Assembly (NCBI GenBank): GCA_039810425.1
Contig: JBDHWW010000063.1
Span: forward strand, 1-15,270
Reading direction: 5' to 3'
From: Pseudobdellovibrionaceae bacterium
GTDB lineage: Bacteria; Bdellovibrionota; Bdellovibrionia; Bdellovibrionales; Bdellovibrionaceae
DNA length: 15,270 nt
Shown here: piece by piece, positions 1-15,000 of the stretch
How positions within the stretch are numbered: the first letter of the stretch is position 1
Layout: each line of letters opens with the position of its first letter
Position numbers: made by a program

Positions 1-3000
1 TGAGGGGAGAGCCCTCAACAGACAGGATGTCTGTTTGCAGTGACTTTGCGGCAATAAAAAACTCCGCATTCTCCACCGAAACACCCCCTTCTAATAAACG
101 GAGAGGCTCTAGAAAGAGCGGCCAAATGCCCTTTGGCCGGCATTCTGGAGACTTTATAGCCTAAAACCCTTCGAGTCCCTGACTCAACCACGGCGGTGAC
201 GGATAAGGGTTTGCATTTTGAGTGTTCAAAGGTCTCTAGGTCATCAAACTCGACTTCTTTTGCTCTACTGTAGACATGGTTTAATTGAGGAAGAAGGTCC
301 TTCGTATGAAGGCCTAAGAAGAGAAACTTTCTCACCACGGTTTTTACGTTAATCCTTAAAATCCGAGCTATTCTTCGTTGAGAGGTGCCACTTACAACCC
401 CTTTGCCATCAACAGCGTAAGGGGGCAGTTTTTAAAAAATTAAACCCAAAGGCTTTTTACACCGCGCTCGCGGGCAACCGCGACGGCTTCTTCGTAGCCA
501 GCATCGACGTGACGGAAGACTCCCATGGCCGGATCGGCCGTCAATACGCGCTCTAAGCGCGCGGCAGCCTCCGCCGTCCCATCAGCGACGATCACTTGTC
601 CCGCATGCTGGCTGTAACCCATCCCCACGCCACCACCGTGATGCAAGCTCACCCAAGTAGCGCCGCAAGCTGTGTTCACCATCGCGTTCAGCAAGGCCCA
701 GTCACTGACCGCATCTGAACCGTCTTTCATCGCTTCGGTTTCGCGGTTTGGACTTGCCACAGATCCGCAATCCAAATGATCACGACCGATGACAATCGGT
801 GCTTTCACTTTGCCTTCAGCCACAAGTCTATTAAACATCAATCCGGCTTTCGCGCGCTCACCATACTCAAGCCAGCAAATACGTGCCGGCAAACCTTGGA
901 AGGCAATGCGTTCTTCGGCCATGTCTAACCAACGGAGAAGGTCTTTTTTGTGCGGAAAGAGTTCGCGCATGGCTTGGTCTGTGACTTTGATATCATTTGG
1001 ATCGCCTGACAAAGCCACCCAACGGAACGGCCCGCTGCCTTTGCAGAAAAGTGGACGGATGTAAGCTGGAACGAAACCAGGATAGTCGAACGCATTTTCA
1101 ACGCCAGCTTCTTGGGCACGCGCCCGCAAATTGTTGCCGTAGTCAAAAGTGACCGCGCCTTTTTCTTTCATCTTGAGCATGCCACGCACGTGCTTTGCCA
1201 TCGAGGCGTAGGCCGCCGCCAAGTACGCTTTTTGATCTTTCTTACGGAACTCCGCGGCTGTCTCGACCGTGTAGCCCTCAGGAATATAACCCACGAGCGG
1301 GTCGTGGGCCGAAGTTTGGTCCGTCAACAAATCCGGAGTGTAGTTTTTCTCGATGAGTTGCCAGATCACGCTCGCCATATTGCCTTCAACCGCGATGGAT
1401 TTTGCTTCGCCCGCTTGGGTGTACTTTTTTATTCTTGCCAAAGCGTCGTCAAGGTCTGTTGCGACTTCGTCGATGTACTTTGTCTCTAGGCGTTTTTGAA
1501 TACGCGTCGGATCGACTTCAACCGCCAACACGCAGGCCCCGGCAAACACACCCGCCAGAGGTTGCGCCCCCCCCATGCCGCCCAAGCCCGCAGTCAGAAT
1601 CGTGCGGCCCTTTAAATTGCCCCCGAAATGCTGACGGCCCGCTTCGACGAAAGTTTCGTAAGTGCCTTGAATGATACCTTGAGTGCCGATGTAGATCCAT
1701 GAGCCCGCCGTCATTTGGCCGTACATCATGAGACCTTTTTTATCGAGCTCATTAAACACTTCCCACGTCGCCCATTTCGGAACGAGGTTGGAGTTCGCCA
1801 GCAAAACGCGTGGCGCATCTTCGTGGGTTTTCAAAATACCGATTGGCTTACCGGATTGAACGAGCAGCGTTTCGTTGTTCTCAAGAGTTTTCAAAGCCGC
1901 CAAAATTTTATCGAAGCTTTCCCAGTTACGCGCTGCTTTGCCAATGCCGCCGTACACCACCAGATCTTCAGGGCGCTCTGCCACCATCGGGTCCAAATTG
2001 TTTTGGATCATCCGATAGGCCGCCTCTTGCAGCCAGCCTTTGCAAACAAGTTTACTACCAGTAGGGGCGCGCACGACGCGGGATTGTGACATGGGAATTT
2101 CCTCCAATTAGGAGGTGAAAATACGGAGTAAAAACTCACTTTTCAAGAAGTACAGGAGCCCCTCAGTGCGCCGCGACAGGGAGTAGGGCCCGACCTATTT
2201 TAGCTGCCGAAAATAAATGGATATGTGACTGGGAAGGTCTTCCCTTCTTCGGCCGGAGGAAATGTCCAATGGATGACTCTCTCAGTAACACAACCTTCGA
2301 GCGCCTGATCTTTGGAGGTATTGTCCTTGATCGTCAGGTTTTGTACGGCCCCTTTGTCGTCGATATCCCATTGAGCCGTGACCTTACCCTTTGTTGCCAT
2401 GCCCTCAATAATTAAATCGGTGTAGCACTGTTGCACGTCATTAAGGCGGCTTTTCACCACCTGTTTCACGGAACTGAGATTTAACTTCTCGGGACCTGCG
2501 GATTCTTTTTTAGCTTTGGCGGAGGCTTCTAGACTTAAGCCGAAAACACAAAGAAGTAGACTCGAGAAGAAAAGGAGCCTCTTTAAAATTCCTTTTTTCA
2601 TAAGACACCATCCTGTGGATATTATACAACAGCACCACATCCCTCCCTACGAGAAAATGATTTGCCGGTTTTTTGAACAGTATTTCAACGAAAAAACTGG
2701 ACTCTTACTCAATACAAAAGCCCAGTCTCGCGGTAAACAGTCACACCTTGGAAAACAAATCGCAGGTGACTCTAAGACTTTTTAAAAATGTGAAATTGAT
2801 AGACACCTGTTCCATCAATTTTCTGGGCCCATAAATCCCTTTCACGGAGATCTTGCCAGCCTTTCAAATCCGGCGCCGTCGGCGCACGCATGAAAGAGCG
2901 GATCACCATTTGCGATCCAGCCTTGGTGTCGCCATGCAGTCGTTGCAAAATCTGGTTCGCGTCCTCTTCAGGAAGGTAGGAAATCGTATCCGAAAGCGAG

Positions 3001-12000: not shown

Positions 12001-15000
12001 AGCGGAGCCGTTTTCCCATGCACCAGGCGCAGAGTCGCGTCCAAGATAGAGTAATTCATATACGGACTCATTTTGTACTCTTCCGGGAAAAGATTCACCA
12101 CAGAGCGCGGAGCGTATTTTTGCGCTTCTTTTTCCGCAGCCGGGTGATGAGACCAAACAATCAAATCTTTTCCGCGAACAAACTCCACGGCGGAATCAAA
12201 GAGCAATAGGAAAGGATAATCACTCGCCACGTACTGAACTCTTTCCACCTGTGACGCAAGAACGGAGCGGCCCATTTTCTGAATCTGCGTTTCCGCAAGC
12301 GGCGTATTGTTACGCATATCCTTTAAGTTCGCCACGTTCAGCGCAAGCTTCGAGAACGCCATCAAACCGGGCACCGGCGCTTGAATCATCAAAGGCAAAC
12401 CCAGCATCGAGTAAGCGTCACCAATGAAGACTTTTCCCGGATAGGATCTGCGTAAAAACTCTTCGAGCTCCGCGCTGAGCATCGCCGCCGGAAAAAAGAC
12501 GCCTGCTTCCGGGCTGACTTTTCCCGATTCAATGAGCTTAATCATGGAATTCAAATTTGAAATCTCACGAAGACCCGTGCCATCGCATAGAGGCACGGAA
12601 CAAGGCATTCCCATGATCTCAAGGTACTGGCGGTGAACATAGGTTTTCTCATCAAGCTTAATCACCGGAGGCAGGCTGCTCAGCGCGAAGGCATCGACAT
12701 CCATGCGCAAGTTTTGTATGAGTTTTTTAACCAGGTCGACTGAGAAGTTCACACCAAAGCGCTGAACTTCAAAACGGTGTCCCACATATTCATAACTGAA
12801 GGAATCATCCCAATGAGAGCGTCCGAAACTAATCTCAGCGATTCGAAATGTACTCATTGTAACCTCGCCAGAAAGATTTTTCGTAACTGTCAAACTCAGG
12901 ACACCAGCCTTCGCCAAGAATGTCGCACGTCGAAACCGAGTCGTACTTCGGGAACATCAAAAGATAATTGAGCTGCTCTTCAGGGAACTTCACCGTCCAC
13001 TTCGAGACCTTCGTGAGCAAGGTCTTCGGCGCGCGGCTTACAAAGGTGATTCCGCGATGGGGAATAAAAAGCTGCTTCAATGTTTTGAGATATAAATCGC
13101 GAGTGATCAAGCCCTCTTTCGGTGTGATATGAAAACTCTGGTAACCGGTGGCTTCAGTTGCTTGTGACCATTTGGCAAAACCCGCGACCGCCTCCGCCGC
13201 TTTATCCACCGGCACCAAGGGAAGACGGTTCATTTTTTTGCCTGGCAAGGGAAATGAGGACGGAAAGCTTTCAATAAATTTACGAATTCGCTCGAATGCC
13301 TGTGGCGCATGGTAGGGGCCATCAATGCGCTCGATCTTTCCATTCACGGTGTCGCCGACAAGGACACCCAAACGCATATTAATGCACAGTTTGAAATGCA
13401 TGGACTGATTCACAATCATCTGCTCAGCCAAGGCCTTGCTTTCAGAGTACGGGTCCGGAAACGGGCGGCTAAAATTCAAATCAAACGGCCGCACCATTTT
13501 GAGCGGCGAGTTCACCGCAGCCGCCACGGAGCTTGCGTTCATAAAAACGGGGATTTGCAATTCACGGGCGATTTTCAAAGCGGTTCCTGTCGCTATCACA
13601 TTCTGCTGAAAAGCATCCCTGTGACTGGCCGCGAGGTCGTACAAGCCGGCCAAGTGAATAAAAACATCGTATTTTTTCTTTTTTAGAGCCTCAAGATTCA
13701 AGCCCGCATTCCAGCGGGTCAGATCGCCGCGAACTTCCGCTGTTTCCGAGCGCGAAATCACCTCGACGTCGGCAAATTCACGCAGCATCGGCAAAACCTG
13801 TTTGCCCAGAAACCCCGTCCCGCCTGTCAAAAGAATTTTTATTTTTCCCATCGGACTGAGCCCACGACGACAGGAAGGCCTTTGTGCAGGCATTTCACAG
13901 ACAACTCCGCCACGTCTTTGAAAAGAATCTCGCCGTCGCCGAAGAAAGTAATCGGGCGGTTGGGATTCTTCGCGCGGACCTTGAACTCGGTGATCTCATA
14001 AGATGTAAAGCGCTTCGATTGGCTGACGGTCCCTTTTCTCAAATGCCAGAACGAGGATAGGTGTTCACGAACGCGGCGGCCTTCGGCGAGCAGTAAGTTC
14101 ACAGTGCCATCGGTATTGGAAGTAAATGGCGCCGGCAAGAACTTGTTGCCGATGCTCGGTTGATTGTTGACCAGGACAATGGGCGCATCGCTGGCGAATT
14201 TTTTATCTCCTGGAAGTTCAAATTCAAGCTCCCAGCCGTTCGGATCCCAGGTGCGCAAGGCTTCGGCCACCATCAGCGAATAAACGCCTGGGCCGATTTT
14301 TTTAATAAGCCGGTAGCTGTTTTTGGCAATCGACTTAAAGACCGTCGCGGTTTGCGGGCAGTTCGCCACTTTTTGCAAACTCGAACGCACCTTGTTCGCG
14401 AGATCCGCAGTCATCGCGGGGATGCCGAACCCGCCGTTGGTTAACATGAAGGCTTTTTTGTCTCCGGAAGAAATTTGAATGATGTCGATGTTGCGGACGG
14501 AGCCCTCGAGGATGTTGCGAACTGCTTGATCAATCCGGTGGCTGATGCCGATTTCATGAGCCAAGTCATTCGCCGTCCCCGAACGCACGATCGCGATCGG
14601 CGGAATTTTTGTCAGGTCTTCTCCGGCGTGGACAAGGTATTGCAAGCACGTGTTAACGGTGCCGTCGCCACCGCAAATAAGGAAGTAGTCGGTTTTCTGC
14701 GCAAGTTCCTCGCACAAAAATTGGCCCATCTCTTCGAGAGTCTTGGCCTTCGAGAAAACCAATTCACAGCGAAACAGAGCGGTACGGATTTTTTCTTCGA
14801 TCAACGCGGGGTTCACGGAGCCCGCCTTTGGGTTGATGACAACAGAGACTCTCACTGGACACATCCTTCCATATGACTTTAATAGCAATCAATATTCCAG
14901 TACTCAAGCCCGTCTCCGGCACTCTGGCCCTGTCCTAAGGACCCAGGACCGTCTATCCTTTAGACAAAAGCCCTAGAGCGGCCCTCGTTGCTGTGGCCTC

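Follow-up and report, generated by a model that had tools for sequence, protein, structure and literature searches.

What do eight neighboring genes of a Pseudobdellovibrionaceae bacterium make, and do they serve one pathway or two? The window considered here, the whole 15,270-nucleotide stretch analyzed (GCA_039810425.1, contig JBDHWW010000063.1, positions 1 to 15,270), carries them at 2772..14855 (Table 1). A first-pass annotation had described a conserved, unpublished lipid-biosynthetic cluster and named a family for each gene; all eight ORFs are indeed intact, the families are as it gave them, and its overall description is strengthened by the co-inheritance and slot swaps set out below. 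That annotation offered no mechanism and overlooked the slot-swapping pattern. As the best explanation we propose, tentatively, a modular pathway to an envelope lipid with fatty-alcohol-derived tails and a phosphodiester-linked, N-capped amino-acid head.

Table 1. The eight genes of the cluster, with family evidence and proposed roles.
Product	Position	Strand	Evidence and proposed role
DUF3419 (BtaA-like SAM-dependent aminocarboxypropyl transferase), 365 aa	2772..3869	-	PF11899 1.3e-57; proposed head-group synthase
Formyltransferase, 248 aa	3986..4732	+	PF00551 2.9e-13; proposed N-cap
Serine alpha/beta hydrolase (residues 1-225, Ser57) fused to OleC-like adenylating ligase (residues ~246-800), 803 aa	4729..7140	+	PF12697, PF00501
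Divergent UbiA-fold membrane transferase, 291 aa	7133..8008	+	PF01040 2.5e-9
PPDK-fold (RPH/PigC architecture) phosphotransferase, 893 aa, swivel His851	8010..10691	+	NF004881
714-aa reductase: apparently degenerate N-terminal AAR-fold module and C-terminal AAR/PigE-type thioester reductase	10713..12857 (start ATG 12857)	-	GATGSIG 505, Cys640
Extended SDR, 338 aa	12835..13851	-	PF07993 2e-20; proposed aldehyde to alcohol step
YegS/DAGK-family lipid kinase, 338 aa, GGDGT	13839..14855	-	PF00781 3.2e-21, PF19279; proposed alcohol kinase

The eight genes and their products

Transcription proceeds in three directions, and the eight genes are not one operon: the DUF3419 gene diverges from the formyltransferase-hydrolase/ligase-UbiA-PPDK run, and the kinase-SDR-reductase run converges on the PPDK gene across a gap of 21 bases. 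The similarity of the 714-aa protein to PigE (1.2e-23) and cyanobacterial AAR (1.2e-10) lies, as first noted, in its C-terminal half only. This half shares with cyanobacterial AAR the Rossmann motif and Cys640, a position that is Cys in 71 of 72 sequences and that we take to be the catalytic Cys of AAR. Only positions 2-348 of the 837-position PigE profile are covered, TIGR04058 (cyanobacterial AAR) is missed at 54 bits against a cut-off of 450, and the window holds no ADO partner of AAR. For the N-terminal half the best structural match among 48,161 chains is AAR (6jzq; Z 10.3 vs 8.6 for the next, rmsd 5.0, 237 residues aligned); a Foldseek search with this half did not list AAR, and its profile match to the protein's own C half spans 32 columns (E 0.012, probability 3.7%). 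The 714-aa protein may combine an inactive AAR-fold module with an active one. The SDR resembles the N-terminal domain of the PRK07201 two-domain fatty acyl reductases (NF005539 profile, 3-351 of 657).

The PPDK-fold enzyme belongs to the uncharacterized NCBIfam family NF004881 (PRK06241.2-2; 1274 bits vs a cut-off of 883) and has the RPH/PigC layout of ATP-grasp, central domain and C-terminal phospho-His swivel, with His851 conserved; it misses the equivalog cut-offs for RPH (343/999), PigC (357/1300) and RedH (381/1350). In UbiA, motif 1 reads R60-x2-DEIKD-x3-D71, with D63/E64/D67/D71 invariant, and the second acidic motif is altered to E189-x2-RK193, so that the second DxxxD of DGGGP synthase is lacking. 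The UbiA structure model (pLDDT 95.9) comes nearest in fold to DGGGP synthase and to archaeal UbiA (Z 20.5-20.9, rmsd 3.2-4.1, 259-273 aligned), and the DGGGP synthase equivalog PRK12883 is missed at 17 vs 353 bits. The fused ligase scores 368/478 bits on PRK09274; the hydrolase nucleophile Ser57 is conserved in 44/44, and in several loci the fusion occurs as two genes. Residues N134/H136/D171 of the formyltransferase are invariant (46 sequences), and DUF3419 scores 196 bits on PF11899 against a cut-off of 28. The earlier hints of PigC/PigE, OleC and BtaA chemistry amount to no more than resemblance; the PigC, PigE, RPH, OleC and OleD equivalog cut-offs are all missed.

One pathway or two

The first-pass annotation cautioned that the two halves of the cluster, being sometimes apart, might be two pathways. 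These would be formyltransferase-ligase-UbiA-PPDK and kinase-SDR-reductase-DUF3419-exporter, often found side by side. The halves do lie on different strands in the window, they are 1.5 Mb apart in genomes G012 and G015, and a distinct cluster of PKS-AfsA type (L241-L245) likewise uses PPDK and UbiA. Set against this is their co-inheritance genome-wide. The 714-aa gene occurs in 51/181 other family genomes, reproducing the earlier count, and the PPDK-fold gene is present in 50 of the 52 family genomes with the reductase, even where the halves are 1.5 Mb apart; because of this we read the cluster as one pathway, and regard two unrelated ones as very improbable. In genus g4 the PPDK, reductase and DUF3419 genes occur in the same 26 of 44 genomes. 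Genes of both halves are interleaved in many orders among loci, L235, L236 and L238 carry the ligase as a fusion with a CarS-like domain, and apparent exceptions to co-inheritance have substitutes.

A recount of 59 loci around the PPDK-fold gene gives UbiA in 52, the ligase in 50, formyltransferase in 38, DUF3419 in 36 and the reductase C-half in 22 (earlier 51, 50, 38, 34 and 21). The claimed recurrence across phyla is borne out for the core, which is found in records titled Verrucomicrobia, Chlamydiae, Acidobacteria, Planctomycetota and Bacteroidota, but not for the window-type reductase or SDR, whose slots other families occupy there. Similarly, the Lol-like exporter ascribed to relatives is seen as a LolA-like gene in 16/59 PPDK loci, but in neither the window nor the loci of three same-genus relatives; the 355-aa protein that accompanies it has no match in the source genome. 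The cluster is also present in cultured B. bacteriovorus strains.

Interchangeable enzymes in five slots

The main evidence for mechanism is a pattern of slot swapping. In 215 overlapping loci, each of five slots, where occupied, is taken by one of several interchangeable enzyme families, and no locus holds two for the same slot: reductase (AAR(+SDR) 58, HMG-CoA-reductase-like 43, FAR 10, none 104), kinase (DAGK 56, phytol/dolichol-kinase-like 30, APH 23), head group (DUF3419 112, serine-synthase (PssA) plus CarS-like 16, PAP2 4), N-cap (formyltransferase 105, GNAT 43, both 0) and exporter (Lol-like 44, MMPL 25). For the reductase, kinase, head and cap slots the overlap is zero even without bit thresholds, AAR+FAR pairs being left out where the FAR query matched the window-type SDR, and a tree built from 72 non-redundant PPDK proteins shows these swaps repeatedly, with at least 10, 10, 4 and 3 changes, respectively. 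Counting against the scheme, a slot is empty in 67-146 of the 215 loci, many of which are short or ended by contig ends.

The best family for the substitute head-group gene is archaetidylserine synthase/PssA plus CarS-like. In 81 genomes around G587, the PPDK gene is found in 17, the PssA-CarS gene in 16 and DUF3419 in none, in a family search that gave matches elsewhere; the PssA-type genomes are kin. A PS decarboxylase gene adjoins DUF3419 in L196. Reductase and kinase can be fused (HMGR-APH), and five loci (L247-L251) hold only HMGR-APH, GNAT and PssA-CarS, with no UbiA or PPDK at the locus; therefore, the kinase product can go directly to the head group. These five genomes are fragmented, with an RPH-type PPDK gene elsewhere in 2/5 and a cluster-type UbiA in 1/5.

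The HMGR-like substitutes retain the equivalents of E559/K691/D767/H866. The S684 position is Asp or Glu in 40/40 and the K735 column has no Lys in 40/40 (Arg in 6/40); we take S684 and K735 to be HMG carboxylate pocket residues of HMG-CoA reductase. Because these two residues are missing, the enzymes are probably not mevalonate enzymes. HMG-CoA synthase is found in 1/5 genomes with the HMGR-like gene and Dxr in 3/5.

A proposed pathway

We infer every substrate and product of the following scheme; gene content, co-inheritance, slot swaps, folds and catalytic residues are as observed above. The AAR-type domain would turn an acyl thioester into the aldehyde, which the SDR would reduce further to the alcohol (step 1), and from this the lipid kinase would form the alkyl phosphate (step 2); these steps are the best supported. 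DUF3419 would move the aminocarboxypropyl group of SAM onto a lipid phosphate and so build the phospho-homoserine head in a single reaction (step 3), for which CDP activation and serine synthase would be the counterpart in relatives, and the formyltransferase would cap the amine (step 4); support here is moderate. More weakly supported, the PPDK-fold enzyme would convert an alkyl monophosphate to the diphosphate donor with which UbiA adds a second tail via an ether or ester oxygen (step 5), and ligase and hydrolase would form or remodel an ester at the carboxyl group (step 6). A Lol-like or MMPL exporter would carry the lipid outward (step 7).

Several points count against this scheme: BtaA itself alkylates the hydroxyl of diacylglycerol, not a phosphate (step 3); UbiA chemistry normally requires an allylic or benzylic donor, the second acidic motif of this UbiA is altered, and no PPDK-fold enzyme is known to us to form alkyl diphosphates (step 5); the acidic residue at the S684 position of the HMGR-like substitutes suits the amino-alcohol alternative below, and some of these substitutes have Arg in the K735 column; and the OleC-like ligase has no convincing place at any step. 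There is precedent for step 3 in MccD, which, in the available text, attaches an aminocarboxypropyl group to phosphate (PMC10491745), and by analogy the substitution of PssA/CarS for DUF3419 suggests a phosphate acceptor. As in BtaA/BtaB betaine lipid synthesis, a DUF3419 enzyme would build a SAM-derived homoserine head, but no BtaB-type N-methyltransferase occurs in the window or among recurring neighbors of DUF3419 loci, and a formyl or acyl cap would take its place. For mycoketide phosphate, the available part of one report proposes that Rv2047c, an SDR with a PEP-utilizer domain, reduces and phosphorylates an alkyl chain (PMC2443190); there the chain is PKS-derived, the head is mannose, and the role is itself a proposal.

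A more specific form of the scheme, which we consider doubtful, is a glycerol-free phospholipid family widespread in bacteria. Starting from a 3-hydroxyacyl or acyl thioester, a long-chain diol or alcohol would be made by AAR, FAR or an HMG-CoA reductase put to new use, a kinase would phosphorylate it, DUF3419 would install the phospho-homoserine head in one step, and UbiA would add a second tail from a PPDK-made fatty-alkyl diphosphate. Phosphatidylthreonine, reportedly present in B. bacteriovorus, has a head group equal in mass to homoserine and might be a related product.

Alternative products

An ether lipid on a glycerol backbone is likewise rather unlikely. Kinase and PPDK-fold enzyme would then only make alkyl diphosphate, as in phytol salvage (phytol kinase VTE5, phytyl-phosphate kinase VTE6, UbiA-family transferase); UbiA, like DGGGP synthase, would form an ether with lyso-PA or glycerol phosphate, the lyso acceptor would come from the hydrolase, and DUF3419 would place homoserine on the phosphate, or BtaA-like on a hydroxyl, before N-formylation. 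The nearest structures of the UbiA model fit this reading, as do the CarS-like and archaetidylserine-synthase-like substitutes, motifs in the substitute kinase that are presumably phytol-kinase-type, a PlsC-like gene in L152 and a lysophospholipase-like gene adjoining DUF3419 in 7 loci. However, an acyltransferase occurs in one locus only, and in L247-L251 the alkyl phosphate would have no use. The archaeal phospholipid route (DGGGP synthase, CarS, archaetidylserine synthase, decarboxylase) does share the UbiA fold, and relatives' clusters hold CarS-like, serine-synthase-like and PSD genes, but chains here apparently come from reduced acyl thioesters rather than isoprenoids, GGGP synthase is absent from the cluster's recurring neighbors, and the route lacks counterparts of DUF3419, N-capping, the PPDK enzyme and the ligase. 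Phytol salvage has the same progression from alcohol through phosphate and diphosphate to UbiA, with a phytol/dolichol-kinase-like gene in the 30 loci counted above; unlike it, the cluster would obtain its alcohol through a reductase and use a PPDK-fold enzyme for the second phosphorylation, and a head group would follow.

Less probable again is an amino-alcohol backbone. Here an amino or aromatic acid would be activated by the ligase and capped by formyltransferase or GNAT, and the reductase would turn it into an N-acyl amino alcohol that mimics ceramide; after phosphorylation by the kinase, DUF3419 would attach homoserine, and UbiA would draw on a common isoprenoid diphosphate for prenylation. 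An amine of the substrate could be bound by the acidic residue that is invariant at the S684 position, the GNAT may resemble bacterial ceramide synthase, and NRPS thioester-reductase profiles are among the matches of the stand-alone FARs. Formylation, adenylation, four-electron reduction to an alcohol and aminocarboxypropyl transfer are a proven combination in the bursatellin pathway (FmtATR and ACT), but that is an animal NRPS acting on tyrosine, and the genes listed in the available text include no kinase, PPDK enzyme, UbiA or lipid exporter (PMC11869996). Moreover, the window has no carrier protein, AAR/PigE-type reductases work on fatty acyl thioesters, L186 fuses its reductase to a long-chain acyl-CoA ligase and keeps the OleC-like ligase separately, FAAL-ACP genes supply some variants, and a reductase persists in loci that lack the ligase. 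Finally, a secreted small natural product is improbable, whether a PPDK enzyme acting like PigC/TamQ joins an amine to the aldehyde from the AAR domain or the ligase forms a beta-lactone of lipstatin type that bears an N-formyl amino acid ester. The PigC and PigE likeness extends to the three-domain PPDK architecture with its swivel His and a thioester reductase with catalytic Cys, an aminotransferase-AAR fusion lies alongside PPDK genes in L239/L240, and DUF3419 borders the cyanobacterial cly/noc cluster, according to the available text (PMC7923214). A beta-lactone synthetase, an SDR and a formyltransferase are among the lipstatin genes, as far as the available text describes them (10.1101/856955), and the company of OleC-like ligase, SDR, hydrolase and formyltransferase is what the window shares with Ole/lipstatin clusters. 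Yet every equivalog cut-off is missed, and thiolase, NRPS, aminotransferase and pyrrole genes are found neither in the window nor among recurring neighbors. A prodigiosin/tambjamine pathway was rejected, there being no reductase-fused aminotransferase and no bipyrrole genes among the eight, and so was OleABCD/lipstatin membership: no OleA-type (OleA/LstAB) thiolase is present, OleC and OleD score 220/900 and 34/580 bits, and the hydrolase has a Ser nucleophile. The alcohol-forming substitutes (FAR, HMGR-like) and the phospholipid head-group enzymes point instead to a membrane lipid.

Implications

All parts of the cluster have known folds, and we found no description, in the literature searched, of a pathway combining them. 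The swaps give testable functions to orphan families: NF004881, the cluster's UbiA branch, a branch of DUF3419, HMGR-like genes without a mevalonate pathway and a domain misnamed "quinate 5-dehydrogenase." If the proposed scheme is true, turning fatty acids into diphosphates on which UbiA can draw would be novel enzymology and would reveal a new source of ether-type lipids in bacteria; if the glycerol-free form holds, there would be four new activities, namely a non-mevalonate HMGR, an alkyl-diphosphate synthase, a fatty-alkyl UbiA transferase and a phospho-homoserine synthase. The presence of the cluster in cultured B. bacteriovorus may bear on how the envelope of the predator differs from that of its prey.

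Layout and Gene Content

The window is one complete contig of 15,270 bases, and the eight genes of the cluster fall into the same families that the first-pass annotation had assigned to them; its locus counts, too, were reproduced to within one or two loci. The minus-strand DUF3419 gene diverges from a tightly coupled plus-strand run of formyltransferase, hydrolase-ligase fusion, UbiA and PPDK-fold genes, on which the mutually overlapping minus-strand genes for the kinase, SDR and 714-aa reductase converge at the PPDK end. Catalytic residues are conserved in the formyltransferase (N134/H136/D171), hydrolase (Ser57), PPDK-fold enzyme (His851), reductase (Cys640), SDR (YxxxK) and kinase (GGDGT). 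Within their own genome seven of the genes have no paralogue, except for one weak partial PPDK match, and the ligase has distant ones only. Scans of the window for promoters (8 vs 10.1) and terminators (24 vs 17.3, sd 4.2) came out near chance, and contigs from three sequencing runs, probably of DNA, gave only scattered cover. The urocanate hydratase and TonB-C/AgmX-like genes are retained in same-genus relatives only and lie outside the cluster, and the transposase pieces at the two contig ends probably caused the assembly break.

Features of the window
Feature	Position	Strand	Remark
transposase-like fragment	15-338	-	left contig end; no Pfam match
urocanate hydratase	440-2107	-	downstream of DUF3419
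TonB-C/AgmX-like small protein	2200-2640	-	downstream of DUF3419
eight-gene cluster	2772-14855		eight intact ORFs
ISL3 transposase remnant	15025-15270	-	right contig end; PF01610

The N-terminal half of the 714-aa protein has no Pfam match; its homologues are either fused or free proteins of ~300 aa, auto-named quinate 5-dehydrogenase in Deinococcota and Chloroflexota (score 0.89; a lead). For the model of this half (pLDDT 87.9) the best of 48,161 chains is a cyanobacterial acyl-ACP reductase (AAR; Z 10.3, next 8.6; rmsd 5.0), and its PLCDGTG segment aligns with PVTTGNS of the C-terminal half (E 0.012). It has neither the glycine-rich loop nor the Cys. The modelled fold suggests that the N half is likely a dead AAR-fold partner fused to a live C-terminal domain, a reading held as likely rather than proven because Foldseek gave no clear fold and did not recover the AAR match.

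A Cluster of Interchangeable Slots

Our census took in 59 genome loci, 80 metagenome loci (the best of 348) centred on the UbiA branch and 75 genome stretches, a redundant set of 214 loci plus the window, with short loci (L001-L030, L110-111, L227-231, L252) excluded. Five slots are filled by alternative families, two of which never occur in one locus. The bit thresholds were of our choosing; upon removing them, there is still no overlap in the reductase, kinase, head-group and cap slots, once AAR+FAR pairs in which the FAR (fatty acyl reductase) query matched the window-type SDR are discounted. On a FastTree phylogeny of 72 PPDK proteins (80% clusters), a fast tree with long branches, the fewest changes required are 10 for reductase, 10 for kinase, 4 for head group and 3 for cap, and slot swaps therefore recur. 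The stable core is formed by ligase, UbiA and PPDK: among UbiA loci of at least 10 kb, the ligase is present in 37/37 and the PPDK gene in 32/37. The hydrolase accompanies the formyltransferase (81/105 loci) and never the GNAT (0/43).

Occupancy of the five slots in 215 loci
Slot	Families (loci)	None
reductase	AAR 58, HMGR-like 43, FAR 10	104
kinase	DAGK 56, phytol-kinase-like 30, APH 23	106
head group	DUF3419 112, PssA/CarS-like 16, PAP2 4	83
cap	formyltransferase 105, GNAT 43	67
exporter	Lol-like 44, MMPL 25	146

At one chromosomal position within a single genus, a formyltransferase-type module (L033-L039) is swapped for a GNAT-type module (L041-L043), with PPDK identities of 78% and 43%, respectively. 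The OleC-like ligases of GNAT-type loci (L041-L043, L050, L098, L099, L101, L107) are mostly ~470-490 aa and are without the C-terminal D-x-RH-x2-K motif of formyltransferase-type ligases.

The three reductase types likely share one outcome, the conversion of a thioester to an alcohol. For the SDR of the window the match is to the N-terminal half of the PRK07201 two-domain fatty acyl reductases, which we take to be the aldehyde-reducing half. The HMG-CoA-reductase-like (HMGR-like) enzymes retain the catalytic set. Among residues with established roles in HMGR, the position of human S684 is Asp or Glu in 40/40 distinct sequences, and none of these has Lys at K735 (Arg in 6). With these changes, and with HMG-CoA synthase found in only one of five genomes that have the HMGR-like version (Dxr in three, the AAR fusion in none), the genes were rejected as mevalonate suppliers. 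Retention of R590 and D690, which are also structural residues, would be compatible with 3-hydroxyacyl as substrate and a 1,3-diol as product, as a lead only. Many loci have the HMGR-like domain fused to the APH kinase, and L186 has it fused to an acyl-CoA ligase. The phytol-kinase-like protein has no sequence match to solved structures, and no VTE6-like domain was detected with Pfam in its long versions.

Further variants add FAAL-ACP and AurF-like genes. The AurF-like diiron gene, whose product may tailor the acyl chain, lies directly 3' of the PPDK gene or before DUF3419 (L201, L206, L212, L215, L216, L220), accompanied in some of these loci by FAAL-ACP and metallo-beta-lactamase genes. L173 and L190 have a divided PPDK-fold gene; in L190 the ATP-grasp part and the central+swivel part are genes of their own, and kinase and FAR genes lie between them. 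At the end of both loci stand genes for a START-like protein of 145 aa and a membrane protein of 151 aa.

Inheritance as Probably One Pathway

The first-pass annotation had cautioned that the two halves of the cluster might be two pathways. Of 182 family genomes, 58 carry the PPDK gene, 52 the reductase and 63 DUF3419; PPDK and reductase occur together in 50. In one genus, g4, all three occur in the same 26/44 genomes, including two (G012, G015) whose halves lie 1.5 Mb apart. Six of the eight PPDK-only genomes carry an HMGR-like and APH-kinase gene, fused or adjacent, beside the PPDK gene; in another (G056) the reductase is cut off by a contig end, and in the last (G175) the contig is 5.4 kb. 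Of the two reductase-only genomes, G071 is 67% complete, and G131 was rejected as a genome lacking the PPDK gene upon finding a divergent copy adjoining DUF3419. Because the halves are co-inherited genome-wide and apparent exceptions carry substitutes, we reject the caveat, and two pathways are very improbable; very probably the genes make up a single lipid-type pathway whose front end reduces and then phosphorylates.

Where named, loci with PPDK proteins 66-87% identical belong to Bdellovibrionota, cultured B. bacteriovorus strains among them. A sample of 401 genomes from the phylum of G186 includes 10 with the PPDK gene. Given its patchy distribution, the cluster is probably accessory.

Proposed Head Group, Diphosphate and Second Tail

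Two loci (L102, L154) lack DUF3419 and have instead a fusion of archaetidylserine-synthase/PssA-like and CarS-like domains. The prediction that PssA-CarS genomes are without DUF3419 held for G587; among 81 genomes around it, kin of unrecorded completeness, the PPDK gene is in 17, PssA-CarS in 16 and DUF3419 in 0. In four other genomes with DUF3419 missing or barely held in the PPDK locus, the gene is present in the genome; it was not found in two genomes whose cluster includes a PAP2 gene. In L196 a PS decarboxylase gene adjoins DUF3419. MccD places an aminocarboxypropyl group on the phosphate of microcin C (PMC10491745), and by analogy DUF3419 is most simply read as a substitute for a two-step phosphodiester synthesis, putting that group onto a lipid phosphate. 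Against solved structures, DUF3419 gave no sequence match and the GNAT matched generic GNATs only.

A minimal cassette of HMGR-APH, GNAT and PssA-CarS, without UbiA, PPDK or ligase, occurs in five loci (L247-L251); in three of the five genomes neither the UbiA branch nor an RPH-type PPDK gene was found, and in two one or both were. Two proteins recur: one of ~230 aa in no family (c52; L098:3414-4151), and one of 355 aa beside a LolA-like gene (L065:10316-11386) with a weak PLA1 match (E 0.06).

For the UbiA model (pLDDT 95.9) the nearest structures are DGGGP synthase and archaeal UbiA; motif 1 is retained and motif 2 is E-x2-RK. The PPDK enzyme is a member of an uncharacterised family and is neither RPH nor PigC. 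It is paired with UbiA also in the PKS-AfsA cluster of L241-L245, which has no recognised kinase; there these two and an MMPL gene stand with a FAAL-ACP-KS-AT-DH-ACP-TE-AfsA megasynthase, an ICMT-like methyltransferase, an SDR and, in 4/5, a fatty acid hydroxylase. The product expected there is presumably a monophosphate, and this context fits a putative PPDK role in taking monophosphate to diphosphate. The ligase is OleC-like, scoring below the cut-off; in the window it is fused to the hydrolase, and three loci have it fused to a CarS-like domain. L239 and L240 carry an aminotransferase-AAR fusion, in reverse order to PigE, two PPDK-fold genes and PssA-like, CarS-like and PS decarboxylase genes, with UbiA in L240 and MMPL in L239; they are possibly an alkylamine version.

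Candidate Products

Our best reading, still tentative, is an alcohol phosphate lipid with a capped phospho-homoserine head. A fatty thioester would be reduced to the alcohol and phosphorylated to an alkyl phosphate, the phospho-homoserine head would be added and N-formyl capped, a diphosphate donor and UbiA would supply the second tail, and the lipid would be exported. A glycerol ether lipid is rather unlikely. An amino-alcohol backbone like that of bursatellin (PMC11869996) is improbable, and a PigC- or lipstatin-like small molecule (10.1101/856955, PMC7923214) still more so.

The tests for membership in the RPH, PigC/PigE, Ole/lipstatin, BtaAB, AAR/ADO and DGGGP synthase systems all failed. 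No published description of the cluster was found in the literature covered, mainly the main texts of open-access papers; Bdellovibrio transcriptome tables may hold gene mentions. Among the papers listed for DUF3419 none concerned the cluster, none joined DUF3419 with UbiA, and none was found linking HMGR, UbiA, PEP synthase and formyltransferase, or fatty alcohol, UbiA, dikinase and ether. For Bdellovibrio, phosphatidylthreonine gave nothing, pathway terms unrelated papers only, and lipid terms, among the matches listed, eukaryotic papers only; the remaining themes gave analogues only. The system is real and widespread, and its presence in a model predator makes it directly testable.
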